This document shows positions 16,461-46,110 of a stretch of 64,000 bases of DNA, in pieces. The DNA comes from an uncultured Spartobacteria bacterium. Lineage in GTDB: Bacteria; Verrucomicrobiota; Verrucomicrobiia; Chthoniobacterales; Chthoniobacteraceae. The DNA is taken from assembly GCA_903933715.1 (NCBI GenBank), contig CAIZLD010000029.1, positions 16,696-80,695 on the forward strand, written 5' to 3'. The notes beneath the pieces are model-generated. The model saw nothing but the letters and a program-made list of their open reading frames with translations. It had not been told where the DNA came from and made no database searches. The position numbers and the translations under genes were made by a program. The number at the start of each line of letters is the position of its first letter. Positions within the stretch are counted from its first letter, which is position 1.

Positions 16461-17453
16461 ATGCTGAACTATTTCATTCGCCGCTTGATTTACATGGTGC
16501 CGATCTTGCTCGGCGTGATGCTGATCACGTTTGTGTTGTTCAACATCGTCGCTTCGCCGCGCGAAATGGCTTTGCAAAATCTCGGGCCCAAAGCCTCCGC
16601 GCAAGCCATCGAGAACTGGCTGCACAATCGCGGTTATTCCGATGAACACGGCAAACCGTATCCGCTTTTCCTGAATACCGAACGGGGCCACAATCCGTTC
16701 GATTCCCTTTATTTCCGCAGCATGAAGCGGTTTGCCACGTTTGATCTCGGCACTTCCTTTGCCACAGGGGAGCCGGTCGTCGAAATGATCAAGCGCGGGG
16801 CAATTCCCTCGCTCTGCATCACGCTCCCCGCCTTTGTCGTGGGGTTGTTCCTCTCCATCGCCACGGCGCTGCTGCTGGTCTTCGTGCGCGACTCGCTCAT
16901 CGACCGCTGGGGGGCCGTCCTTTGTGTGGCGACAATGAGCATCCCGATCACTGTCTATGTCATCTTCGGTCAATGGATGGCGGCCAACCTCTTCAACTAT
17001 TTCCCGGCGTTTGGTTTCACGATGGAAGGATTCTCGACGGCACGCTTTATCGCGCTTCCCGTGGCGATCATGATCTTTAGCGGGCTGGGCGTGGATGTGC
17101 GGATGTATCGCGCCGTTTTCCTGGAAGAAGTCCGCGCCGACTACATCCGAACGGCGCAAGCCAAGGGAGCCTCCCATGCCCGTGTGTTGTTGGTTCATAT
17201 GCTCAAAAACGGGATGATCTCGCTCATCACGCTGGTCGTCGCCGCGCTGCCATTCCTGATCATGGGGACACTGGTCATCGAGAGCTTCTTTGGGATTCCA
17301 GGTCTCGGGAACCTGATGACGACCGCCATTCAGACCAAAGATTTTGGGGTGATTCAGGCCGACGTTTACTTCGGCTCATTGCTTTATCTGTTCGGATTGC
17401 TGCTCACCGACATCTGTTACGCCGCCGTCGATCCCCGTATCCGACTTCAATAA
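16461..17453 (+). CDS. ABC transporter permease (OppB/DppB-like)
   Basis: Start trimmed to ATG 16461 (MLNYFIRRLIYMVPILLGVMLITFVLF, the typical OppB N-terminus). It has the EAA-like loop (YIRTAQAKGASHARVLLVHMLKNGMI). Confidence 0.9.
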   Translation: MLNYFIRRLIYMVPILLGVMLITFVLFNIVASPREMALQNLGPKASAQAIENWLHNRGYSDEHGKPYPLFLNTERGHNPFDSLYFRSMKRFATFDLGTSFATGEPVVEMIKRGAIPSLCITLPAFVVGLFLSIATALLLVFVRDSLIDRWGAVLCVATMSIPITVYVIFGQWMAANLFNYFPAFGFTMEGFSTARFIALPVAIMIFSGLGVDVRMYRAVFLEEVRADYIRTAQAKGASHARVLLVHMLKNGMISLITLVVAALPFLIMGTLVIESFFGIPGLGNLMTTAIQTKDFGVIQADVYFGSLLYLFGLLLTDICYAAVDPRIRLQ

Positions 17454-22163: not shown

Positions 22164-22913
22164 TTATATTTTCAGAGAACGATAAGTTATTTTGGATGGG
22201 GCGTGCCGATCCAGCAGCACCGCTTCGACCGCTCCCTGCTTGAGTTGCTCCTCGCGGTGAGCGGAGATCGTTTCAGCAGACGGAACCCCGTCTTCCTCGC
22301 GAGTCAACGTCAGATGCCCCACTGTCCAGGCATCCAATCCCACGTTCAGCCTCTCGTCCTGGGATAATCCTGAAATCTTAGTTTTACGTAAAAACTCGCT
22401 CATCATGCTTGCGGAGTGATGCTTGCCGGAAATCACCGCAAACGGCTCCGGGGCGTTTGAGAGCGCCCCTCCATTGGTATGGTAGGAGCCATCGTAATCC
22501 AGAGTCAGCAGCAGATCAGGCTCCCCATTGCGCCCGAGTTCCGCAAAAAGCATTCGCGCCAGATACGGCGGACCGTAGATTTGCTCGAACGCATTCTTCA
22601 GGAGCGGGCTCATGGAATACGAGACCAAACGCCGCAGTGAAACGTCTTGGGCCGACCGGGTAAACCCTTCCGCTCCAGCGACTTCGATCCCCGTCATGCG
22701 AAGCCGCTCAATATCCCCGGGGTGCCCGATGGCTCCCATCGCGATGCGGTCATAAATCTCGAAAAGCTTCTGGCGTTCGCGGCTCACCGTGACCAAAAGG
22801 ATCCCGTCCGCGCCACTTAAAGCAACAATGGGGCTTCCGGCGGCGAGTTGATTTTCAATGTATTCGCGGCGGTTTTGGATGGCCTCGACCCAGCGGTACG
22901 GTTCTTCAATCAT
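22164..22913 (-). CDS. prcA: 20S proteasome alpha-type subunit (bacterial PrcA-like)
   Basis: Collinear similarity to mycobacterial PrcA as I remember it: IYDRIAMGAIGHPGDIERLRMTGIEVA..RSAQDVSLRRL ... LTLDYDGS (cf. [27 protein letters not shown] ... RITYDGS). ATGA start/stop overlap with prcB. Confidence 0.8.
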   Translation of the reverse strand: MIEEPYRWVEAIQNRREYIENQLAAGSPIVALSGADGILLVTVSRERQKLFEIYDRIAMGAIGHPGDIERLRMTGIEVAGAEGFTRSAQDVSLRRLVSYSMSPLLKNAFEQIYGPPYLARMLFAELGRNGEPDLLLTLDYDGSYHTNGGALSNAPEPFAVISGKHHSASMMSEFLRKTKISGLSQDERLNVGLDAWTVGHLTLTREEDGVPSAETISAHREEQLKQGAVEAVLLDRHAPSKITYRSLKI

Positions 22914-23737
22914 GGGGTTGGTTGGTTTTTAGCGTTTTGCAGATCACGTTGGTATGCTTTGATCAGGACGGCGTCGGGAAGGGTCGTGATCCCTTTCGAA
23001 TTGACGATCTTCACCAGCGGATAGACCCGTCCGTGGCGGTCCACTGCCCCGGTTGCGGTATCGTTTTGCGCCGCCGTATCGAGCGCCCGTAACGCCAGCA
23101 GAACGGCCTCTTCTTCGTTCATTTTGAGCATCGGACGCGATCCATAGGCGTTCGCGTATTGCAGCACCGCCCGGACCGAAGGGGAACCGGAGCCGGATGC
23201 CGCAAAATCGGCGACCTCGAACTGCGCCCCCATCACATCATAAAAATAGAGCCGCGAAAGATCGGCTGCGGGATCGTAGGCGGCAAAAATCGGGACCACC
23301 ACCCCGACCCCCTGCAACGCCATGCCGATGTTATCGCGCAGCAGCTTGGAAAGCGCCCGGACCTTGCCCTCCATGCTCATCTCCTGGAGTTGGCTGCGCC
23401 GGTAAAATTGGAACGAATGCTCCAGCATCCGCGCCATTTCCCAGGCGGTCGCGGGCACCCCGGCGATCGCCATCAGTGAAAAGCGGTCAATTTCAAGCAC
23501 CTTATCGGCCCGGTCGTAAATCACCAGATTCCCGGAGGTCGCCCGGCGATCGCCCGCCATGAGGACGCCCCCGGCAAACTTGAACGCCAGAATGGTCGTC
23601 GCCATTGTTTGGCACCCTTCCGGCAACGGCCCGCCGCGTGGGGCATGGACTGGCGGCGGTTCGGGCAAAATCCCGTTGCGGCGCAACAAAGTGGGGAAAT
23701 CGGGCACCCCCGAGTCCGTCATGGGAGATGGTTCCAT
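22910..23737 (-). CDS. prcB: 20S proteasome beta subunit with propeptide and catalytic Thr (PrcB-like)
   Basis: TTILAFKFAGGVLMAGDRRATSGNLV closely parallels Mtb PrcB [26 protein letters not shown]. An approximately 46-aa propeptide precedes the Thr. GSGS motif further downstream. Confidence 0.9.
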   Translation of the reverse strand: MEPSPMTDSGVPDFPTLLRRNGILPEPPPVHAPRGGPLPEGCQTMATTILAFKFAGGVLMAGDRRATSGNLVIYDRADKVLEIDRFSLMAIAGVPATAWEMARMLEHSFQFYRRSQLQEMSMEGKVRALSKLLRDNIGMALQGVGVVVPIFAAYDPAADLSRLYFYDVMGAQFEVADFAASGSGSPSVRAVLQYANAYGSRPMLKMNEEEAVLLALRALDTAAQNDTATGAVDRHGRVYPLVKIVNSKGITTLPDAVLIKAYQRDLQNAKNQPTP

Positions 23738-28251: not shown

Positions 28252-29097
28252 CTATCCTTTGACGATTTTGACGCCGTTTTTGTCGGCGCTCGTTACCACG
28301 GTGCGGGCTTTGATGTTCCCGGCGGCCGTGAGCATGGCGGCGGCAATCTTTTCGGGATGCTCCAACGTGACGCAAGCAATCGTTGATCCCGAACCGCTGA
28401 GGAATCCGCCCAATGCCCCGGCCTCTTCGCCCGCCCGGATCACGTCGGGCAAAAACGGGATGAGCGGTTGGCGGAACGGCTGGTGGAGGTAATCGTCGAA
28501 TGCTCCCCGGAGCGCTTCGTATTGACCGCAGGCAAACGCGGCGGTGATGCGGGCGGCATTGCCTGCGCAGGTGACGGCCAGCTCGTGTTGCAGATCGAGC
28601 GGCAAAACCTTGCGGGCGGCGGGCGTGGAAACTTCAAAATCCGGGATCAGGAGAACGAACGACAAATCCGGGGAAACTTCAAACGAGAGGCATCCATCCG
28701 CGCTCGCCACGGTGAAACCGCCAAACTCCGCGGGGGCGGCATTGTCGGGATGTCCCTCCAGCTCACTGCACAAAAGGAAAAGCTCCTCGCGTTCCAGCGG
28801 GCCTCCCGCCAATTCATTGAGCCCATGGAGAATCCCAAGCCGGACGGTCACGCTGCTGCCCAGCCCCCGGGATTGGGGAACATCGCCCGTGATCGACCAG
28901 CCGAACCCGAACGGTTTGACCCCGGCGGTTTCAAAAAAACGGGCGGCGGCTTTGACCGCCATCGGAGGGAGCTTGGCGGCCGATGGCCCCCGGCGCACGG
29001 TGACGCGGTTATAGATCCGCAACGCCACTCCCAAGCAATCATAACCGGGCCCGAGGTTGGCGGTGGTGGCGGGAACGCGCAGGGTGATGGAGTTCAT
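28252..29097 (-). CDS. thrB: Homoserine kinase
   Basis: Start trimmed to ATG 29097. VPATTANLGPGYDCLGVAL, GLGSSVT, EGHPDNAAPAEFGG, HQPFR, and GGFLSGSGSTI (GHMP kinase, ThrB signatures). Confidence 0.85.
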   Translation of the reverse strand: MNSITLRVPATTANLGPGYDCLGVALRIYNRVTVRRGPSAAKLPPMAVKAAARFFETAGVKPFGFGWSITGDVPQSRGLGSSVTVRLGILHGLNELAGGPLEREELFLLCSELEGHPDNAAPAEFGGFTVASADGCLSFEVSPDLSFVLLIPDFEVSTPAARKVLPLDLQHELAVTCAGNAARITAAFACGQYEALRGAFDDYLHQPFRQPLIPFLPDVIRAGEEAGALGGFLSGSGSTIACVTLEHPEKIAAAMLTAAGNIKARTVVTSADKNGVKIVKG

Positions 29098-29208: not shown

Positions 29209-30840
29209 TCAGATCCTCTTGGGATCCCGTCCATCCATCGCCTCGGCGATCCCCTGGCGCAAGGTTTCAAACGTGAACGGCTTGGAGATGATGGTGTCGA
29301 TTTCCAGCCGCAGGGAGGCGCCTTGCGGCAGAGATGCCCCGAAACCGGTCAAAAGCGCAATGCGAATTTCGGGATCGCGAGCCCGGATTTCCGCAGCCAG
29401 CAGATCGCCGTTCATCTTGGGCATCGAATAATCGGTCAAGAGAAGATCAAAACGCCCGGGAGTAAAATGCTCCAGCGCCTCGGTGCCGTCAGACGCCAGT
29501 TCGACTTGATGGCCGTCTTCGGCAAGGTAAACCGCAAGCACTTCCCGAATGTTCGGCTCGTCCTCCACCACAAAGATCCGCAGGCCGGTCATTGTTTTGG
29601 ACAGGACCGGTTTTTCCAGGCTGGAAACCGGGAATTGCACGGTGACTTTGGTTCCCTCCCCCTCCCTGCTCTCGATCTTGATCCCGGCCTTGTGACGCTG
29701 GGCGATGCCGTGGACGACTCCCAGTCCCAGCCCGATCCCGGTATGGTTTTTAGTGGTAAAAAACGGTTCCAGGCAACGGCTCAATACTTCCGGGTTCATC
29801 CCCACCCCGTTATCGGCGATCGACGCGGCCACTCCCCCATCGACAGAATAAATGCTCGCCCGGATCGTGCCGTTTTTCGGAATGGCGTCCACGGCGTTGA
29901 GGATCAAATCGGTGAACATCTGCCGGAGTTCATTGCGGACCCCGTCGATCTTGGGCGCATCGCTGAACTCGGTCTGGAAGGTGACTTCGCAGCCTCTCGA
30001 CTGGGCCTGGTCTTTCCAATACATCTGCGTCAAACAGATGGCTTCCATGAGCACTTCGTTGAGCTCGATCGGCTCCATCGAGCCCGTTTCCCCCCCCGAG
30101 TGATAAAAGCCGCGCAGCCGCATCACGATTTCAGAGCAATATTCCGCCGACTCGTTGATTTTGCAGAGCGCTTTCCTGAGCTTGGCGTTATCAGCCATGT
30201 CCTCCGGTTTTCTTAAGAACCACTCGCTGTGGGCAAGGATCGGGGAAAGGGCATTGTTAAAGTCGTGGGCGATCCCGCTGGCCATACGTTCCATGGCGTT
30301 GAGGCGCTCTTGCTGGATGCGTTGGGCTTGGGCGGCGCTCGATTCATCCAGCGCCTTTGAGAGCTGCTGGTTGGATAAAGACAATGCCTGCGTGCGTTCG
30401 GCCACTCTCTTTTCCAGTTCGTCGCGGACCGATTTGAGCGCCAATTCGCCCCGCTTTCTCTCCATGGCAAAATAAATAGTCCGGGCGAGCCTTTTTTCCG
30501 TCAGATCGGTCTTTAGCAGGTAATCCTGCGCGCCTTGGCGGACGAATTCGAGCGCCAGGTCTTCATCGTCCAGCGCGCTCAAGATGATGACCGGCAGGTG
30601 CGGCATCGCTTCCGAAAATTGGGTGAATGTTTCCAATCCGCTTGAATCGGGCAATCCGAGCAATACCAAATCCACCGCCATCCCTTTTTCCATCTCCGCC
30701 ACAGCCTCACTCAAACGCGAGAACACGCCGCTCAAGATCATTTGGCCGCCCCCTTCTCCCAGCATTTCCGCCACGAGCCTTTGGTCCGGTAGATGATCTT
30801 CCACTAGAAAAACGCGCACAAATTTGGGCGGGGGTCTCAC
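29209..30840 (-). CDS. Hybrid histidine kinase: degenerate REC, coiled coil, HisKA, HATPase_c, REC
   Basis: GTG start at 30840. H-box MASGIAHDFNNAL, N/G boxes (LILNAVDA, DNGVGM, GIGLGLGVV), and a C-terminal receiver with DLLLTDYSMPKMNG. The N-terminal receiver lacks the acceptor Asp (see findings). Confidence 0.85.
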   Translation of the reverse strand: MRPPPKFVRVFLVEDHLPDQRLVAEMLGEGGGQMILSGVFSRLSEAVAEMEKGMAVDLVLLGLPDSSGLETFTQFSEAMPHLPVIILSALDDEDLALEFVRQGAQDYLLKTDLTEKRLARTIYFAMERKRGELALKSVRDELEKRVAERTQALSLSNQQLSKALDESSAAQAQRIQQERLNAMERMASGIAHDFNNALSPILAHSEWFLRKPEDMADNAKLRKALCKINESAEYCSEIVMRLRGFYHSGGETGSMEPIELNEVLMEAICLTQMYWKDQAQSRGCEVTFQTEFSDAPKIDGVRNELRQMFTDLILNAVDAIPKNGTIRASIYSVDGGVAASIADNGVGMNPEVLSRCLEPFFTTKNHTGIGLGLGVVHGIAQRHKAGIKIESREGEGTKVTVQFPVSSLEKPVLSKTMTGLRIFVVEDEPNIREVLAVYLAEDGHQVELASDGTEALEHFTPGRFDLLLTDYSMPKMNGDLLAAEIRARDPEIRIALLTGFGASLPQGASLRLEIDTIISKPFTFETLRQGIAEAMDGRDPKRI

Positions 30841-30849
30841 AACCCAGCG

Positions 30850-32481
30850 TTATAACACATGAATGTTTTTAATTTCCACACCAATTAAACAAACATCATC
30901 GGTAAAATTATGGTTGATCGCAAAATCACGCACCTCGTTGATCGTTTCGTCTATTAACTTTTCTGAGGAGTTTACAAGCCCCTTGCGTAATACCTCCTGC
31001 AACATCTCTTGATTGAAATAAGTCTCGTGCTCGCCTTCCACTTCACAAAGGCCGTCGGTGAACAAAATCAATAAATCCCGCTCTGCAATGGGGCGAATGT
31101 GGGTCTCAAAATGGGCGTCTTTAAAGACCCCCAAGGCGGGACCGGGACGCTCCGAAGGAGCGCAGATCGGGCCGATTTCCCCGGTTTCACGGCTGATGTG
31201 GATCGGCCATGGATGCCCCGCGTTGGAATAGCGCACGCACTTCTCCCGAAGGTCCACAACCATGGCGAACGCTGAGGCAAACATCGGGGTGCGGGCGCGG
31301 CGCAAAATTGAGAGCAGGGCGCGATTGATCTCCGTCAGGAAACGCCCGGGATCTTGCGCCGCGGGCAGCATCTCCTCCACCAAGGCTCGCTGGATCGCCG
31401 TGACGAGCGCCGCCCGGACGCCGTGCCCCATCACGTCACAGATGAACACCCCGGCCTCCGTATCCGAGAGCGGAATGATGTGAAAAAAGTCGCCCCCGAC
31501 GGCGGTGGTGGGAATATAGCGGCTGAAAAACTGGATCGCGCTTTCTTCCACCGAAGCGTTGCGCGGAAACGTGGGGAACTGTTGAGGCAAAAAAGCCTGC
31601 TGGATTTCGCGCGCCATGTGGAGATCGTCTTCCAATTCCGTATTGCGCTGGCGGATTTCGGCATTGTAGCGGAAAATTTGCTCCTCGGCGGCCTTGCGCT
31701 CGGTAATGTCGCGCCCGATCCCGATCACCCCCACGACCTCCCCTGCCCGGTTCCGCAACGGAACCTTGGTGGTCGAAATCCAGCGCACGGCGGAGGAATT
31801 CGAGACGACGACCTCCTCCCGGTTCAGAATCGGCTGCCCCGTTCGGCAAACGACCGCGTCGTCCTCCTGGAATTTCGTGGCGATCGGATTAGGGAAAAAA
31901 TCGAACACGCTTTTTCCCACGACTTGTTCGGGCAAATCGACCGAAAGCGTGCGGCGGTGGGCGATGTTATCCAAAAGATAACGGCCGTTCACGTCTTTGA
32001 CGTAGATGGAATCCAGCAGATTGTCGATCACGTTGCGCAACAGGTTGCGCTCTTCCTCCAAAGCATGCTCGGCAGCCAACCGCTCCATGGCGTAGCGGAT
32101 CGAACGGGCCAAACTGCGGGGGTCCACCTGCCCCTTGACCAGATAATCCTGCGCCCCTTCCTTCACGGTCTGAAGCGCAAGCGACTCGTCATCAAGCCCG
32201 CTGAGAACAATCAGCGGGAGCATCGGGGCATGATTGACCATCCGATGAAACGTATCGATCCCCTGGCTGTCAGGGAGGGAGAGATCCAGTAAAATAAGTT
32301 GGAAATCCCCCCCGGCAAGTTTTTCCATGGCCTCGGAAAGGCGGGTGGTCACGACGGTTTCGAACCGCCCGCTTTTGGCATCAATCAACAACTCCTGAAT
32401 CAAACGGGCGTCTCCCGGGTTGTCTTCCACCAGAAGCACCCGGATAGCCGGTTCTGCCGTCGTTGGTTGCGTCCCTGGCAT
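30850..32481 (-). CDS. Response regulator with PAS and PP2C/SpoIIE phosphatase output (RsbU/RsbP-like)
   Basis: REC (VLLVEDNPGD ... LILLDLSLPDSQG ... DYLVKG), PAS (NVIDNLLDSIYVKD ... GIGRDITERK), and SpoIIE (GGDFFHI ... CDVMGHGVRAAL ... LFTDGL). Confidence 0.88.
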   Translation of the reverse strand: MPGTQPTTAEPAIRVLLVEDNPGDARLIQELLIDAKSGRFETVVTTRLSEAMEKLAGGDFQLILLDLSLPDSQGIDTFHRMVNHAPMLPLIVLSGLDDESLALQTVKEGAQDYLVKGQVDPRSLARSIRYAMERLAAEHALEEERNLLRNVIDNLLDSIYVKDVNGRYLLDNIAHRRTLSVDLPEQVVGKSVFDFFPNPIATKFQEDDAVVCRTGQPILNREEVVVSNSSAVRWISTTKVPLRNRAGEVVGVIGIGRDITERKAAEEQIFRYNAEIRQRNTELEDDLHMAREIQQAFLPQQFPTFPRNASVEESAIQFFSRYIPTTAVGGDFFHIIPLSDTEAGVFICDVMGHGVRAALVTAIQRALVEEMLPAAQDPGRFLTEINRALLSILRRARTPMFASAFAMVVDLREKCVRYSNAGHPWPIHISRETGEIGPICAPSERPGPALGVFKDAHFETHIRPIAERDLLILFTDGLCEVEGEHETYFNQEMLQEVLRKGLVNSSEKLIDETINEVRDFAINHNFTDDVCLIGVEIKNIHVL

Positions 32482-32543: not shown

Positions 32544-35150
32544 TTACCCTGCCTCTTGCGTCTCCGGTAGTGTAAAATGGAATGCGGCTCCCTTGCCGAC
32601 TTCGGATTCCACCCAAATGCGCCCACCGTGGCGCTCCACAATCCGTTTACAGATCGCCAGTCCAATCCCCGTCCCGGCGTATTCCTGTCGGGTGTGCAGT
32701 CGCTGAAAAATGACGAAAACCCGCTCAAAATCTTTCGGATCGATCCCCAGGCCATTGTCCTTCACCACAAATTCCCAATTCCCATCCAAAAGGGTGGCGC
32801 CAATCTCGATCCGGACCGGCTGCGGTCCCCGGAATTTGAGGGCGTTGCCGATCAGGTTTTGAAAAAGCTGACCGAGCTGAACCGGGTCGGCATCAAGCTC
32901 CGGCAATTCGCCCAAGACGATTTCCCCCTTATTTTCCTCAATCGCAAACCGCAGGTTATCCAAGGCCCGCTGCACGATATCCGCGACTTTGAGCCGCTCG
33001 AACGGCCGTCCATGGGTTCCGACGCGGGAGTATTGAAGCAAATCCTGAATAAATTGTTGCATCCGTTGCGCACCTTCCACGGCATAATCAATGAACTCCT
33101 GGGCGTTGGCGTCGAGCGAATCCCGGTAACGGCGCGAAAGCAGTTGAGTGTAGCTGGCCACCATCCGGAGCGGCTCTTGCAAATCGTGGGAAACCATGTA
33201 GGCGAATTGTTCGAGCTCCTGGTTGGAACGGTGCAACTCTGCGAGCACCCGGTCTAGCGCCGCCTGGGCTTCCACGCGCTCGGTCACATCGGTCGAGACG
33301 CCCACAAAATGGATGAGGCGGCCCGAAGCGTCGCGGACGGGGGTGATTTTGATTTCGTTCCAAAACAGAGTTCCGTCTTTTCGATAGTTCCGGATCACCG
33401 CCTGGCATTCCTGTTGATGAACCACCCCATCGTGGAGCATGGCAACGACCTCCGGCTCGCTCTCCGGCCCCTGTAAAATCCGGCAATTGCGCCCGATCAC
33501 CTCCTCCTTGGAGTAACCGGTGATCCGCTCAAAGGCAGGGTTCACATCGACGACCGGGTTATCGGGCTGGGTCGGGTCTGTGATGATGACGGCGCTTACG
33601 ACGGCGGCAATGGCCCGGTCGCGTAAGATCAGCGTCTCCTGGATTTCCTTCAGATTAGTAATATCGGTGCGCAGGGAGACGATGCCGCCATCGCGCGTCC
33701 GGTGATCGCTTACGCGCAACCAGCGTCCGTTGATCCGCTGATCGAAGGGATGGTGGTCGGCCTTCCGGTACGTCGCCATTCGCTTTTGAATCCACGCTTC
33801 CATATCCTCAACTCCATCCACATGCCCTCCCCGGCGCATGAACTCGCGCAATATTTCTTCCAGCGAAACACCCGGTATAATGATATCTGCGCACCGTTCA
33901 AACATGGTCCGGAAAGTCTGGTTGCAGATCACGAGGCGTTCGTCGGGGCCGAACATTACAAAACCGGCATTGATGTTTTCAATGGCATCGACCAGCCGCT
34001 CGCGGGCCAGACGGAGTTCCTCGGTGCGGTGCTGCACCCTGGTTTCTAAATCATCATAGGCGTGACGCAGTTTTTCCTGTGCCTGGTTGAGCTCGTCAAT
34101 CCGGCGCGAGAGCGTTTCGGCCATTTGATTGAAAGCCTCCCCAATCTCTCCAAATTCTCCTCCCTCCAGCTTGCTGCGGACATCCAATCTCCCGGCGCTA
34201 AGTCCCCTCGCCACGCTGGCGAGGTGCCGGGCCGGGCGCACAATGCTGTTCCGGGCCAGCATCCAAGCCGCCACCGTTCCAAACAACGCGATCCCCAGCA
34301 TCAGTCCCAGCTGTTCGTAGAGCCGCTTTTGAAACGGAGCATACGCCTCCTTTTTGGAAATCCCGACCAACACCGAGAGATTGCCAATTCCCGGGGCTTT
34401 GAGCCGGGTCATCCCATAAATCCGCTCCACCCCATCCGCTCCGACCGCTTCCATCGATCCGGCATTTTCGGCAGAACGGAATTTTTCCGCGATCGGCATT
34501 TTTTTCCCTACCCATTTTTCCGGGTCCGGATAGCGCATCAAAAAAGCGTCATGCTCGTCAACCATCGCAATCGAACTGCCGGGGGGTAATTTGACGCGTG
34601 TCCCGAAATCGCTGACAGTCCTCAGATCAAGCCCTACATAAACCACGCCGGTGATGTTCCCGTTTGGGTCAATCATTGGCAATGCCAGATGAAAGCTGGG
34701 CTTTTTGGAGATTCGCCCAATGATAAATTCGCCGACTGTAAATGCCTTCGTCTGGACCGCTCGCTGAAAGAAGGCGCGATCCGAAAGATTGGTTGGTTCG
34801 GTGACGGGGGGAGCGGACGCAATGACATTCCCCTGGGCATCCAGGGTTGCGACAATCGAGAAGAGCGGGTTTTGCTTGAGCATCTGCTCAAAGAGCGGCT
34901 CCGATTCGCTTCTCGATTGCGCTTTGACGCTGTCGAGTTGCGCCATCACGGTCAGCAATTGGCGGACGGAATCAATGAGCATCTCCTGGGTATTCGAGAA
35001 CACCCCCGCCAGACGCAAAGCCTCGGCCTTGGTATTTTCTTTGGCCCTCGCGATCTGTTCGCTGGCCGTATTGATTTCCATCACGACCAGCGGCAGGAAT
35101 GCCAATCCCATCAAGACCATCAGTTTGATCCGTAAGCTGGATGACCTCAC
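32544..35150 (-). CDS. Membrane sensor histidine kinase: Cache-like periplasmic domain, HAMP, PAS, LOV, HisKA, HATPase_c
   Basis: TM1 (LMVLMGLAFLPLVV), an approximately 250-aa extracytoplasmic domain, TM2 (LGLMLGIALFGTVAAWML), HAMP, PAS, LOV (NPAFERITGYSKEEVIGRNCRILQGP...RKDGTLFWNEIKITPV), H-box (FAYMVSHDLQEPLR), and G-boxes (DNGLGI, GTGIGLAIC). The GTG start at 35150 overlaps the shc stop. The next in-frame ATG is at 35120. Confidence 0.85.
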   Translation of the reverse strand: MRSSSLRIKLMVLMGLAFLPLVVMEINTASEQIARAKENTKAEALRLAGVFSNTQEMLIDSVRQLLTVMAQLDSVKAQSRSESEPLFEQMLKQNPLFSIVATLDAQGNVIASAPPVTEPTNLSDRAFFQRAVQTKAFTVGEFIIGRISKKPSFHLALPMIDPNGNITGVVYVGLDLRTVSDFGTRVKLPPGSSIAMVDEHDAFLMRYPDPEKWVGKKMPIAEKFRSAENAGSMEAVGADGVERIYGMTRLKAPGIGNLSVLVGISKKEAYAPFQKRLYEQLGLMLGIALFGTVAAWMLARNSIVRPARHLASVARGLSAGRLDVRSKLEGGEFGEIGEAFNQMAETLSRRIDELNQAQEKLRHAYDDLETRVQHRTEELRLARERLVDAIENINAGFVMFGPDERLVICNQTFRTMFERCADIIIPGVSLEEILREFMRRGGHVDGVEDMEAWIQKRMATYRKADHHPFDQRINGRWLRVSDHRTRDGGIVSLRTDITNLKEIQETLILRDRAIAAVVSAVIITDPTQPDNPVVDVNPAFERITGYSKEEVIGRNCRILQGPESEPEVVAMLHDGVVHQQECQAVIRNYRKDGTLFWNEIKITPVRDASGRLIHFVGVSTDVTERVEAQAALDRVLAELHRSNQELEQFAYMVSHDLQEPLRMVASYTQLLSRRYRDSLDANAQEFIDYAVEGAQRMQQFIQDLLQYSRVGTHGRPFERLKVADIVQRALDNLRFAIEENKGEIVLGELPELDADPVQLGQLFQNLIGNALKFRGPQPVRIEIGATLLDGNWEFVVKDNGLGIDPKDFERVFVIFQRLHTRQEYAGTGIGLAICKRIVERHGGRIWVESEVGKGAAFHFTLPETQEAG

Positions 35151-37135
35151 ATCGGGAGTTTACTCCGTTGGCCCTTTATTGCACGCGCATTTGCATTGAC
35201 AAGGAATGATGCCGCCTTGGGGGAATTCCCGTTGGCGTAGGTGGCCAGAGCCAGCAGCGGAAAATTATTCCGGTACATGTCGTAGTTGAGATAAAAGACC
35301 CGCGGGAAGCCGGTGCCGGTGGTCTGGGGTTCGCTCCAGCTTCCATCCCGGTTCTGCTTTTGCAGGAGCCACTGAACGCCGCGCCGGATGGATGGCCGCC
35401 GTGAATCCCCCCACGCGCACAGCCCCATCACTGCCCAGGCTGTTTGAGATGGAGTGCTTTCCCCGCATCCTTTGAGCGACGGATCTTCGTAACTTTGCGG
35501 CGATTCCCCCCACCCCCCGTCTTGATTCTGGCAACTCTCCAGCCAGTCCCGAGCCCGCTCGATCCAGGGTTGATCCATCGGCGCTCCAACGGATCGCACC
35601 CCCCGGAGCACCTGCCAGGTGCCATAAATGTAGTTCACCCCCCAGCGTCCATACCACGAGCCGTCCGGTTCCTGGGTTCGCCGCAGATAAGCCAGAGCCC
35701 GCTCCACCGCCGGATGCCGCTGATCAAAATCCAGGTACCCGAGCAGCTCCAGCATACGGCCGGTGAGATCGCTGCACGACGGGTCGAGAATGGCGTTGTG
35801 GTCCGCAAACGGGATGCTTTCGAGCCAACGCCGGGTGACATCTTTGTCGAAGGCCGCCCAGCCGCCGTCACGGCACTGGAAGGAGAGAAGCCACGGCAGG
35901 GCGCGTTCAAAGATTTTCCGCAGTTTATCTTCGGAGGCTCCCGAACAAGGGGCAAACCGCAGCGCCATGAGCACCATCATTGTATCGTCTGTATCCGGGT
36001 AGTAATCGTTTCGGAATTCAAACGACCAGCCGCTGGCCACCGGATGCGGGTTATTGATCGCCCAGTCCCCACGGATGCAGACCTCCCGTTCGATCAACCA
36101 TTGAACCGCACGAGCCCGGGCGTCACCGCAACCGCCCCCGCTTTCCTCCAAAGCGATGAGATTGATGGCGGTGTCCCAAACCGGTGAAAGACACGGCTGG
36201 ATACGAAAATCTTCCGGGTCGTCCACGAAGAGCCCTTCGAAATCCCGCAATGCCTTGGATAAAACCGGGTGGGAAGCGTCATACCCGAGCGCCTTGAGGG
36301 CGATAATGGAATTGAGCATCGCCGGGAATACGGCGGCGAGCCCGTGGGAACCGCTGCCCATCCGTTCGGTCATCCATCGCACTGCTTCCCGCAAGGCGCG
36401 CTCGCGCAGCGGCTTAAAGCCCAGCCCGTCGAGGCGCTTGAAAAAACGATCCACCCCGAGAAAAAAATTGCGCCAGCTCACCCAAGGCCGGGCGATTTGA
36501 GGCATCAGCTCGCCGGGATCATCAATGGGAAAAAGTTCGCCGATCTGCAAGTCGGGATGCAAATGACGGGTTGGTTGCAAATGATTGAGGATCGCGAGCG
36601 GGACGATCATCGCTCGGCTCCAGGAGGACATTTGATAAAGACTGAACGGGAAGCGATCCGGGATGAGCACCATCTCGACGGGAATGGTGGGCAGGAGTTC
36701 CCATGGAAACTGACCCAGGAGCGCCAGATACAGCTTGGCGTAGGTGTTCATGCGCGGCACACCGCCCAACCGCAGGGCGACGGCACGGGCCAGTTGCATA
36801 TGAGGCGCCTGCGGCGAATCTCCCGCGAGCTTCAGCGCGAAGTAAGCCTTGACCGTCGCGTTCACCTCGTCGGGTCCGCCGTAGTAAATATTCCACCCTC
36901 CCTCCGGGGTTTGGCGCTGCCGGATATGGGCCACGCATTTCTCCTGAAGCACGGGATCGACCGTTGCCGCCCAGTGCATGTAAAGAATGTAGTCGGAACA
37001 AAGGGTGCTATCGACGATCAATTCACCCGCCCAATGCCCGTCAGGATTTTGGAGGCGCAGCAAGTTGGATTGCGCCCGGGCAATGGCTTCTTTAAGTGAG
37101 GAGTGCCGTGGGTCAGTTACGGGTTCGGTTGCCAT
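35147..37135 (-). CDS. shc: Squalene-hopene cyclase
   Basis: Start trimmed to ATG 37135 (MATEPVTD; the tracked start at 37315 would overlap hpnH by 155 nt). Repeated QW motifs (QNPDGHWAGE, QTPEGGWN, QCRDGGWAAF, QEPDGSWYGRWG, QNQDGGWGE, QNRDGSWSE) and the catalytic DxDDT motif (YYPDTDDTMMV). Confidence 0.92.
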   Translation of the reverse strand: MATEPVTDPRHSSLKEAIARAQSNLLRLQNPDGHWAGELIVDSTLCSDYILYMHWAATVDPVLQEKCVAHIRQRQTPEGGWNIYYGGPDEVNATVKAYFALKLAGDSPQAPHMQLARAVALRLGGVPRMNTYAKLYLALLGQFPWELLPTIPVEMVLIPDRFPFSLYQMSSWSRAMIVPLAILNHLQPTRHLHPDLQIGELFPIDDPGELMPQIARPWVSWRNFFLGVDRFFKRLDGLGFKPLRERALREAVRWMTERMGSGSHGLAAVFPAMLNSIIALKALGYDASHPVLSKALRDFEGLFVDDPEDFRIQPCLSPVWDTAINLIALEESGGGCGDARARAVQWLIEREVCIRGDWAINNPHPVASGWSFEFRNDYYPDTDDTMMVLMALRFAPCSGASEDKLRKIFERALPWLLSFQCRDGGWAAFDKDVTRRWLESIPFADHNAILDPSCSDLTGRMLELLGYLDFDQRHPAVERALAYLRRTQEPDGSWYGRWGVNYIYGTWQVLRGVRSVGAPMDQPWIERARDWLESCQNQDGGWGESPQSYEDPSLKGCGESTPSQTAWAVMGLCAWGDSRRPSIRRGVQWLLQKQNRDGSWSEPQTTGTGFPRVFYLNYDMYRNNFPLLALATYANGNSPKAASFLVNANARAIKGQRSKLPM

Positions 37136-37160: not shown

Positions 37161-38366
37161 TCACCTTTTTGCGGTGATCCGCGGCCGCGGACCGAAGTTG
37201 AACCGGAGGTTTTTCCAGATGTCTCCCCGTTGGGCATTGATGCCGAGGGTGGCGGTCGGTTCATGCCCGCAATGGACCATGCAATGTTCGCACCGGGGAT
37301 CGCGAGCCACGCCATTCACTCTGCCCAGCCGGTCCCAGTCGGTTGCCTCAATCAACTCGCGGTAGCTGGCGTAATGGGCGTCGGTAATGAGATAGCACGG
37401 CCCCTTCCACCCCCGCACATTGCGCGTCGGGATCGCCCATGCCGAACACGACAACTCCCGTTTGCCTGCCAGAAATTCGAGATAAACCGGCGTTCCCAAC
37501 AGTGGAAAACGGCGGCCCCATTCTTCCGCATTCCGAAATTTTTCGATCGTATCCGCCCGCGTCAGGAAAAAATCTTCCGGCCGACCCTGCTTTCGCCGAA
37601 CCATCGCCTCGGCTGCCTCCGCGTAATCATACCCTGGTGTGATCGTGTGTCCGTCAACTCCCAGGGTGCCCAGAAAGCTCCACAATTCCTCGATTTCCAC
37701 CATTTTCGTTTGTTTATAAATGGTGGTATTGGTTGCTACCTGGTAGCCCAGGATTTTGGCCATGCGGATCGCCAGAACGCATTCTTTGAAGACGCCGCTT
37801 TTTTCGACAATCCGGTCGTGGGTTGCTTCCAGGCCGTCGAGGTGGATATTCCAGTAGAACCAACGGGACGGTTTGATGACCGGCCTCTTTTTATCAATCC
37901 GCCCGCTGCGAATGACTGCCGCCTCTTTGTGGGAAATGAGCTTTTCGAGAATGAGCTGGTATAAAATGGGCTCGAATCGCCGGGGCTCTTCGCTCCATTG
38001 CACGGCGAGATAATCGCTCATTTTACGCCGCATAATGAGGGCGTTGGTGCAGAGATAAACGATCCGTTTCTGATCGCGCAACCCGGCCACCAGCGCTTCG
38101 ATTTCCGGGTAAAGAAGCGGTTCGCCACCGCAGATGGAAACCATTGGCGCATCGCATTCGGCCGCCGCCGCGAGGCAATCGGCAAGCGGCATCATGTCGC
38201 GAATCGTCGAGGCATATTCGCGGATCCGACCGCAACCGGTACAGGCGAGATTGCAGGCATGGAGCGGCTCAAGCTGGAGAACGGTGGCAAAGCGGGATAC
38301 CGCGCGCCAGCGTTGCTTCAGGAGAGTCGATGCGATTTTAAGCGTAAGAGGCAGCGGAAATCTCAT
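37161..38366 (-). CDS. hpnH: Hopanoid-biosynthesis radical SAM protein (adenosylhopane synthase)
   Basis: LEPLHACNLACTGCGRIREY radical-SAM CxxxCxxC in the HpnH-typical N-terminal context. About 400 aa, immediately upstream of shc. Confidence 0.85.
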   Translation of the reverse strand: MRFPLPLTLKIASTLLKQRWRAVSRFATVLQLEPLHACNLACTGCGRIREYASTIRDMMPLADCLAAAAECDAPMVSICGGEPLLYPEIEALVAGLRDQKRIVYLCTNALIMRRKMSDYLAVQWSEEPRRFEPILYQLILEKLISHKEAAVIRSGRIDKKRPVIKPSRWFYWNIHLDGLEATHDRIVEKSGVFKECVLAIRMAKILGYQVATNTTIYKQTKMVEIEELWSFLGTLGVDGHTITPGYDYAEAAEAMVRRKQGRPEDFFLTRADTIEKFRNAEEWGRRFPLLGTPVYLEFLAGKRELSCSAWAIPTRNVRGWKGPCYLITDAHYASYRELIEATDWDRLGRVNGVARDPRCEHCMVHCGHEPTATLGINAQRGDIWKNLRFNFGPRPRITAKR

Positions 38367-38544: not shown

Positions 38545-38586
38545 AAAAAAACAAAAAAACGGGGTTCCGTCAGAAACGGAACCCCG
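38545..38586 (-). terminator. Intrinsic terminator downstream of the PEP-CTERM gene
   Basis: On the minus strand, CGGGGTTCCGT-TTCTG-ACGGAACCCCG (11-bp stem, 38560-38586) is followed by TTTTTTTGTTTTTTT. Confidence 0.8.
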
Positions 38587-38612
38587 CAAAAACTTCCTCG
38601 CTAAAAAAGCCT

Positions 38613-43327: not shown

Positions 43328-45985
<2,658 letters not shown>

Positions 45986-46028
45986 AAATCTCGCGCAAAC
46001 CACCGCAGCGAATGAAAGACAGGAATAG

Positions 46029-46110
46029 CTCACGCAAAGACGCAAAGACGCAAAGGGATAGGATTTCAAATTCCTCTGCCTTTCTTTGCGCCTTTGCGTC
46101 TTTGCGTGAG
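46029..46110. repeat. GCAAAG-family 27-bp inverted repeat pair between gyrB and gyrA
   Basis: CTCACGCAAAGACGCAAAGACGCAAAG (46029-46055) and CTTTGCGCCTTTGCGTCTTTGCGTGAG (46084-46110). The arms are reverse complements with one mismatch. Confidence 0.85.

Follow-up and report, generated by a model that had tools for sequence, protein, structure and literature searches.

Among the LOV histidine kinases described so far, the engineered YtvA-FixL fusion YF1, Erythrobacter EL346, Brucella LOV-HK and Caulobacter LovK are soluble proteins in which a LOV domain with a GxNCRFLQG-type motif is followed by a J-alpha coiled coil, the DHp domain and the catalytic (CA) domain, in line with the observation that characterised photoreceptor kinases are mostly soluble (PMC6798134). 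The active-site glutamine is generally dispensable in LOV receptors (Dietler 2022, PMC9098866): in YF1, most of the 19 substitutions of Q123 retain light regulation, the exceptions being Pro, His, Trp, Tyr and Arg, and the replacement of Gln by Leu makes dark recovery approximately 10-fold slower and increases the effective light sensitivity. About 350 natural glutamine-deficient LOV receptors (LOVdeltaQ), mostly with Leu or Ile but also with Ser or Thr in place of the Gln, have been reported, and one of these, a LOVdeltaQ-GGDEF protein of M. loti, is repressed by blue light (PMC9098866). On the output side, the transmembrane sensor kinase RsbK of B. cereus acts via the REC-PP2C protein RsbY on RsbV~P and, through it, on sigma-B (PMC4574943). 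Here we compare with these systems a locus from an uncultured soil or freshwater Spartobacteria bacterium (Verrucomicrobiota; Chthoniobacterales; Chthoniobacteraceae), located in a 64,000-nucleotide stretch (positions 16,696 to 80,695 of the forward strand of contig CAIZLD010000029.1, assembly GCA_903933715.1; hereafter, the window, to which all coordinates refer), in which a minus-strand gene (32544..35150) encodes a predicted transmembrane sensor histidine kinase with a LOV domain that lacks the active-site glutamine.

The LOV region itself is readily recognised. Positions 33276-33629 (minus strand) encode residues 508-625 of the kinase, exactly as quoted in a first-pass annotation of the window, and include the motif GRNCRILQG (residues 553-561), the sole motif of the LOV type that emerges when the window is translated in all six frames, in which the adduct-forming Cys556, equivalent to C450 of AsLOV2, is encoded by the TGC codon at 33483-33485. 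The profile alignment proposed in that annotation as a check yields a match to Pfam PAS_9 with an E-value of 8.9e-26, and a phmmer comparison with LOV domains of solved structure gives 3.7e-38, with 151 LOV chains below 1e-5; the top structures all come from LOV proteins, namely, Meiothermus MrLOVe (9vf7), PAL, aureochrome, YF1, phototropin LOV2, YtvA and Brucella LOV-HK. At such levels of sequence similarity, a chance origin of the LOV resemblance is excluded.

In an alignment to AsLOV2 and YtvA, the kinase has equivalents of AsLOV2 N425, N449, C450, R451, Q454, N482, N492, G511 and the E444/K485 pair; the six polar flavin contacts among these (N531, N555, R557, Q560, N588 and N598 of the kinase, corresponding to N425, N449, R451, Q454, N482 and N492) are invariant in all 37 orthologs described below. 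In contrast, the position of the active-site Gln in I-beta (Q513 of AsLOV2, Q123 of YtvA) is occupied by Ser619 (codon TCG, 33294-33296), so that the downstream element cited in the first-pass annotation as GVQ actually reads GVS. Of the flavin-contacting residues that the annotation had made decisive for the LOV assignment, the Asn, Arg and Gln of NCRFLQ align whereas the terminal Gln does not, being Ser in the window and absent from every ortholog. Furthermore, His573 (codon CAC, 33432-33434) replaces the second Arg that contacts the phosphate of flavin mononucleotide (FMN; R467 of AsLOV2, R79 of YtvA), and the Phe of the motif (F452 of AsLOV2) is replaced by Ile558. Assembly error can be ruled out as the source of these departures because a contig assembled independently (L002) has exactly the same cassette DNA. 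The predicted flavin pocket, as judged from the alignment, is not fully canonical.

A search for orthologs over 5.8 billion proteins retrieved 35 full-length clusters with the same architecture and 60-100% identity, plus 2 that differ only in lacking PAS_7; those that are named belong to Chthoniobacteraceae. None of these 37 orthologs has a Gln at the Q513 position, which is occupied by Leu in 28, Ser in 5, Ala in 2, Ile in 1 and Met in 1, and the adduct-forming Cys is retained in 36. At the R467 position, Arg is found in 26 orthologs, His in 10 and Gly in 1, and Ile558 is found in the window alone. The family-wide absence of the glutamine, which went unmentioned in the first-pass annotation, is the most informative fact about this locus. 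Of the 20 LOV domains from outside the family that resemble it most (at 51-59% identity), 18 do have Gln, so that its loss is a derived trait of this kinase family. In a wider outside sample, collected with a home-made LOV hidden Markov model, Gln was found in 70 sequences versus Leu in 22, although this sample is biased toward the Gln-less query and gives no background rate; the underlying search for representatives with the LOV domain alone had been ranked by the summed scores of giant multi-PAS proteins, the sequences of which were reused with the model. A scan of contigs with the generic HisKA pattern DLQEPLRM brought up mostly unrelated PAS kinases, with one full ortholog (L006) among the matches listed.

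Across the family, pairwise identity in the LOV domain averages 73% and 32% of its columns are invariant, similar to the other cytoplasmic domains, and it diverges in step with PAS_7 and the catalytic domain, the identity to close orthologs in the window lineage being 0.82, compared with 0.78-0.84 for PAS_7 and 0.85 for CA; hence, the domain is under purifying selection rather than being a decaying relic. One further deviation in the window is Ala520 (codon 33591-33593), a position held by Gly in all of the other 34 full-length orthologs that were aligned. It is equivalent to N414 of AsLOV2, which lies in A'-alpha and is the partner of Q513 during light signalling; YtvA, too, has Gly at this place.

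With the conserved LOV residues and adduct Cys in place, and the Gln replaced by residues that are non-aromatic, uncharged and different from Pro, all within the reported natural spectrum, the kinase family is best assigned to the already described LOVdeltaQ receptors. The missing Gln reclassifies the domain rather than refuting its LOV identity, given that this residue is generally dispensable and that natural LOVdeltaQ receptors exist (PMC9098866). The only natural LOVdeltaQ receptor that has been tested is the soluble M. loti LOV-GGDEF(-EAL) protein, which has Met at this position, unlike the transmembrane histidine kinase family considered here; a search of the available literature found no later work on natural glutamine-deficient LOV kinases.

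The kinase comprises 868 amino acids (aa) when translated from the GTG at 35150, the numbering used here; the public gene calls start it at the ATG at 35120, 10 codons downstream (858 aa), but the GTG seems preferable because many orthologs preserve the amino-acid sequence RSFSLRIKL at the N-terminus. Pfam matches and hydropathy give the order TM–dCache–TM–HAMP–PAS_7–LOV–HisKA–HATPase (TM, transmembrane segment), in agreement with the first-pass reading of a Cache-like domain, a HAMP domain, a second PAS domain and LOV as the last sensor before HisKA. Two strongly hydrophobic 19-mers by the Kyte-Doolittle scale (approximately residues 6-28 and 280-299) flank the Cache domain. The first predicted TM segment (35067..35135, minus strand, as for all parts of the kinase) is preceded by conserved basic residues and is also indicated by a helix in the structural model and by conservation of the N-terminus; the second (34254..34313) is indicated by hydropathy and the model. 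Between them lies the extracytoplasmic dCache_1 sensor (residues 36-275, 34326..35045; Pfam match 36-204, 68.5 bits against a cut-off of 45), the closest solved relative of which is the sensor of B. subtilis KinD (4jgo, E 1e-10). There follow HAMP (residues 300-348, 34107..34253; 35.5 bits, cut-off 25), the cytoplasmic PAS_7 (residues 390-504, 33639..33983; Pfam), the glutamine-deficient LOV domain (residues 512-625, 33276..33617; PAS_9/LOV match 522-624) and a J-alpha or coiled-coil linker (residues 626-645, 33216..33275), the length of which is identical in 35 of 35 orthologs. The kinase core includes both parts expected of the HisKA class, HisKA/DHp (residues 646-711, 33018..33215; 45.1 bits) with the phospho-acceptor His655 (codon 33186-33188) in an H-box SHDLQEPLR that is invariant among the aligned orthologs, and HATPase_c (residues 755-864, 32559..32888; 101.5 bits), both above the respective cut-offs. 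The predicted topology is that of a transmembrane dCache sensor kinase with two TM helices followed by HAMP.

An AlphaFold (AF2) model of the full-length kinase, an obligate dimer, was built as a monomer from a 25-sequence ortholog alignment; it was used for secondary structure within domains, never for inter-domain geometry. The predicted local distance difference test score (pLDDT) is 80-93 in dCache and 77-86 in the LOV region, where the canonical order of A-beta/B-beta/C-F-alpha/G-I-beta elements is recovered (DSSP on the model), and a single unbroken helix spans residues 623-674, from the end of I-beta past His655 into DHp. A Foldseek search with the LOV domain alone identified 9vf7 (TM-score 0.87), and the best multi-domain matches are the LOV kinases YF1 (4gcz, 32% identity over 374 columns that cover LOV and DHp), SB2F1, EL346 and Brucella LOV-HK.

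Compared with the soluble LOV kinases, the window kinase shares the motif type and the order of LOV, J-alpha coiled coil, DHp and CA; it differs from them in being, by prediction, membrane-anchored with a periplasmic dCache domain, HAMP and an extra PAS_7, in lacking the active-site Gln, and in having a REC-PP2C partner instead of a FixJ-, PhyR- or LovR-type regulator. The first-pass statement that most bacterial LOV kinases are soluble agrees with the record for the characterised ones. The NCBIfam equivalog models score below their cut-offs (YtvA_fam, 140 against 250 bits; BluLightHisKinLov, 126 against 450), and membership in the YtvA family can be rejected, given the lack of a STAS domain on the protein and the YtvA_fam score. 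The design of a membrane-anchored LOV kinase is not unique: database proteins such as P0216 (CHASE-TM-PAS-LOV-PAS-HK-REC) and P0239 (4HB_MCP-HAMP-...-LOV-HK) likewise combine an extracytoplasmic sensor with a cytoplasmic LOV domain, although these have the canonical Gln, other periplasmic sensors and C-terminal receivers.

Directly downstream of the kinase, as the first-pass annotation had noted, lies the gene for a response regulator with REC, PAS and SpoIIE/PP2C domains (30850..32481, minus strand; Pfam), the presumed cognate output, and 3' of it, a gene for a hybrid kinase of the REC-HisKA-HATPase-REC type (29209..30840, minus strand; Pfam). The trio of kinase, REC-PAS-PP2C regulator and hybrid kinase is present in all 10 sampled lineages (window/L002, L001, L003, L004, L005 with two genes inserted, L006, L086, L087, L088 and L089). 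The acceptor Asp, the Ser and the Lys of the receiver and the four PP2C Asp motifs are invariant in the 10 loci, and the best solved relative of the regulator is the REC-PP2C protein RssB of P. aeruginosa; the partner is conserved and, as judged from its motifs, catalytically competent.

The resemblance to the path from YtvA to RsbU or RsbP, drawn in the first-pass annotation, turns out to be loose. In B. subtilis, YtvA acts through the stressosome, RsbT and RsbU, so that a blue-light LOV input ultimately bears on a PP2C phosphatase, as proposed here; however, YtvA is a soluble LOV-STAS protein inside the stressosome, whereas in the window the LOV domain belongs to a histidine kinase that would signal by His-Asp phosphotransfer, no STAS output and no stressosome genes being found nearby. 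The RsbK-RsbY system is closer (PMC4574943): here, too, a transmembrane multi-domain kinase is encoded beside a response regulator with a PP2C output, and that regulator has an intact acceptor Asp and the PP2C metal-binding motifs. The differences from RsbK-RsbY are the LOV input of the kinase, the additional PAS domain of the regulator, the hybrid kinase as the third member of the conserved set and the absence of RsbV, RsbW, sigma-B and RsbM methyltransferase genes from the 64-kb window. Nor did the window, the part of the genome that was searched, reveal a gene for a separate STAS protein, an anti-sigma kinase or an alternative sigma factor; the sole STAS domain in the window is part of a SulP transporter.

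From homology, residue pattern, architecture, family-wide conservation and synteny, we conclude, with a probability of roughly 0.6, that the domain is a genuine glutamine-deficient LOV domain, placed directly before the DHp helix of a transmembrane dCache-HAMP-PAS_7-LOV kinase of Chthoniobacterales, and that it works by the light mechanism outlined next. The protein would most likely be a dual-input kinase that responds to a periplasmic ligand and to blue light and controls a PP2C phosphatase; the integration of a chemical and a light signal, suggested in the first-pass annotation, is a reasonable inference from the architecture. What goes beyond these data, namely, the binding of flavin and its photocycle, the direction of the light response, the phosphotransfer partners and the PP2C substrate, is inferred, and the course of events would be as follows. 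FMN would be held by the conserved pocket (N531, N555, R557, Q560, N588 and N598), and blue light would induce an adduct between Cys556 and the flavin C4a, with protonation of N5. In the absence of Gln at position 619, hydrogen bonds through water would relay the change to I-beta, the route suggested for LOVdeltaQ receptors; recovery in the dark would probably be slower and sensitivity to dim light accordingly greater. The signal would then pass through the J-alpha/coiled-coil helix of invariant length into DHp, shifting there the balance between kinase and phosphatase activities, which the dCache, HAMP and PAS_7 inputs would set as well. The phosphoryl group would be transferred to the adjacent REC-PAS-PP2C regulator and possibly also to one or both receivers of the hybrid kinase encoded next to it, bringing under control a Ser/Thr phosphatase whose substrate is probably a phospho-STAS partner-switch protein encoded elsewhere, the most plausible candidate by analogy with the action of RsbK and RsbY on RsbV~P in B. 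cereus (PMC4574943).

Several observations weigh against this interpretation. The pocket in the window combines three non-canonical positions (S619, H573 and I558) along with A520, which may jointly alter flavin affinity and signalling. Attenuated responses have been reported for many Gln substitutions (Dietler et al., PMC9098866), the adduct Cys is replaced by Thr in one of the orthologs (P0035), and there is no gene for a PP2C substrate nearby in the window. The sign of the light response is not predictable because the linker is 2 residues shorter than that of YF1, a difference that corresponds to no assignable register. Finally, the global confidence of the AF2 model is low (mean pLDDT 66.6, predicted template modelling score 0.36).

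Under the alternative that is hardest to dismiss, the domain binds flavin but is not used physiologically as a light sensor, serving either as a redox- or oxygen-responsive flavin PAS domain or as a structural unit of dimerisation and transmission, so that the kinase would be essentially a chemosensor. The variability of the Gln position (L/S/A/I/M) throughout a family that has lost this residue indicates that no specific side chain is selected there, and LOVdeltaQ receptors have been tied to descent from redox-active flavoproteins, many substitutions attenuating signalling (Dietler et al., PMC9098866). The kinase scaffold, too, tolerates other domains at this place: relatives of the dCache-HAMP-HisKA scaffold carry no cytoplasmic PAS domain, PAS_7, LOV, PAS_7 with LOV, or PAS_3 with PAS_4, the last variant likewise having a REC-PAS-PP2C gene downstream. 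These variants suggest that LOV is one interchangeable cytoplasmic input on a periplasm-sensing kinase. The loss of the Cys in P0035 fits a non-light role as well; on the other side, this Cys is kept in 36 of the 37 orthologs although it has no known role besides photoadduct formation and would not be needed for a purely redox or structural function, the nearest relatives of the domain are canonical, and the single natural LOVdeltaQ receptor tested is light-responsive. Overall, we consider a non-light module unlikely, if by no means negligible. P0035 itself has GRNTRFLQG at residue 556 and has also lost the Gln (Met); such a domain, devoid of both residues, could signal solely via flavin photoreduction or redox chemistry, if at all. 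The scaffold variants (loci L033, L070 and L075, proteins P0036-P0045) amount to a natural domain-swap series on one signalling chassis.

The light-responsive, glutamine-deficient kinase that we favour would be compatible with another proposal, in which the kinase/PP2C module is co-transcribed with the adjacent hopanoid genes and tunes hopanoid synthesis or membrane stress to a light or envelope cue. Upstream of the kinase, on the same strand, are the squalene-hopene cyclase gene shc (35147..37135; TIGR01507, 680 bits) and the radical SAM adenosyl-hopene transferase gene hpnH (37161..38366; TIGR03470, 369 bits); the shc stop and the kinase GTG start overlap by 4 nt (GTGA, 35147-35150). Six of the 10 lineages, including one with the LOV-only variant, have the tightly spaced hpnH-shc-kinase arrangement; it extends to 62% identity and is not limited to close relatives, being present in orthologs at 62-68% identity. 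The L001 locus has the same outer neighbours on either side as L086 and yet no hpnH-shc, from which it follows that the arrangement is probably ancestral and was lost several times. Between hpnH and the preceding PEP-CTERM gene there is a strong terminator-like hairpin (38559-38587, minus strand; 13-bp stem with 8 GC, followed by a T-run), the only such site in the 28.9-39.5 kb interval, with none comparable between hpnH and the hybrid kinase gene, which is consistent with a predicted single transcription unit from hpnH through the hybrid kinase. Additionally, the general stress response of R. palustris controls a gene for hopanoid modification. Against this, 4 of the 10 lineages keep the trio without hpnH-shc, the LOV-less relatives are not beside shc, and the scan for promoters and terminators, a consensus scan, found overall no more sites than in shuffled sequence. 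The placement next to the hopanoid genes in the first-pass annotation stands, but adjacency alone is no proof of a functional link because the unrelated flanking genes DUF5069 and YchF are equally syntenic, so that vertical inheritance suffices; a tie to hopanoid synthesis strikes us as doubtful.

The longest ORF for shc extends to 37315, 180 nt upstream of the public start; as it would thereby reach 155 nt into the 3' end of hpnH, the shorter call (662 aa) is more likely to be correct. Downstream of the trio, the GHMP-kinase gene at 28252-29097 (minus strand) is the homoserine kinase gene thrB (NCBIfam TIGR00191, 186 bits), not that of an isoprenoid-pathway kinase, and so contributes no connection to hopanoid precursor supply.

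The weakest alternative is lineage-specific degeneration, in which I558, H573, S619 and A520 would jointly impair flavin binding and leave the window copy a cofactor-less PAS relic, even if orthologs of the Leu/Arg type still work. It could appeal to the His in place of the phosphate-binding Arg, to the loss of a receiver Asp from the neighbouring hybrid kinase in this lineage and to I558 and A520, which make up two of the only four residues, protein-wide, by which the window departs from columns that do not vary among the other 34 aligned orthologs. This reading is very improbable given that the LOV domain shows no acceleration of its own (the identities above) and that 10 of the 37 orthologs, as well as LOV domains of other proteins that do have the Gln, carry His at the R467 position. 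Other LOV-like domains likewise have Ile instead of the Phe, the substitutions in the window are conservative, and its reading frame is unbroken. In the hybrid kinase, the N-terminal receiver (30646-30669, minus strand) has a 2-residue deletion that removes the acceptor Asp (LVLL--GLPDS), identical in L002; the same receiver reads VLLDLSLPDS in 7 of 9 loci, and in L001 the Asp is replaced by Ala, suggesting that this is probably a pseudo-receiver in the window lineage and in L001.

Returning to the light-responsive kinase, a more elaborate scenario would combine an adaptive loss of the Gln, providing slower dark recovery and dim-light sensitivity in soil or sediment, the joining of dCache and light inputs, ancestral co-transcription with hpnH-shc and a partner switch run by the REC-PAS-PP2C protein that tunes hopanoid and membrane homeostasis to illumination; we regard this combination as a long shot.

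Elsewhere in the window, there are two adjacent, overlapping genes of the proteasome family (PF00227) at 22164-22913 and 22910-23737 (minus strand; E 1e-7 and 1e-27), a pair also present in the gene calls of the public contig. An 889-aa minus-strand ORF at 43364-46033 is rejected as a gene, being exactly antisense to gyrB (43361-45985, plus strand, 874 aa, with the EGDSAGG motif) and having no Pfam match.

The locus described here joins three known elements, the LOV kinase, the LOVdeltaQ receptor and the two-component system with PP2C output, in a membrane-bound architecture with two probable inputs, found in a phylum that has been little studied. As such, it extends well-known families by a small step and introduces no new principle. 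Should the domain turn out not to be photoactive, it would show only that the NCRFLQ motif does not guarantee a photoreceptor. If it is photoactive, the family would supply the first LOV histidine kinase of the glutamine-deficient kind from nature, and the presence of Leu, Ser, Ala, Ile or Met at the Gln position on a constant scaffold would make the family a test bed for the water-relay model. The kinase would also be a rare tractable transmembrane kinase in which light, as the second input and a cytoplasmic one, could be turned on and off as desired, and would offer a first way into the light responses of Chthoniobacterales, an order that has received little study.

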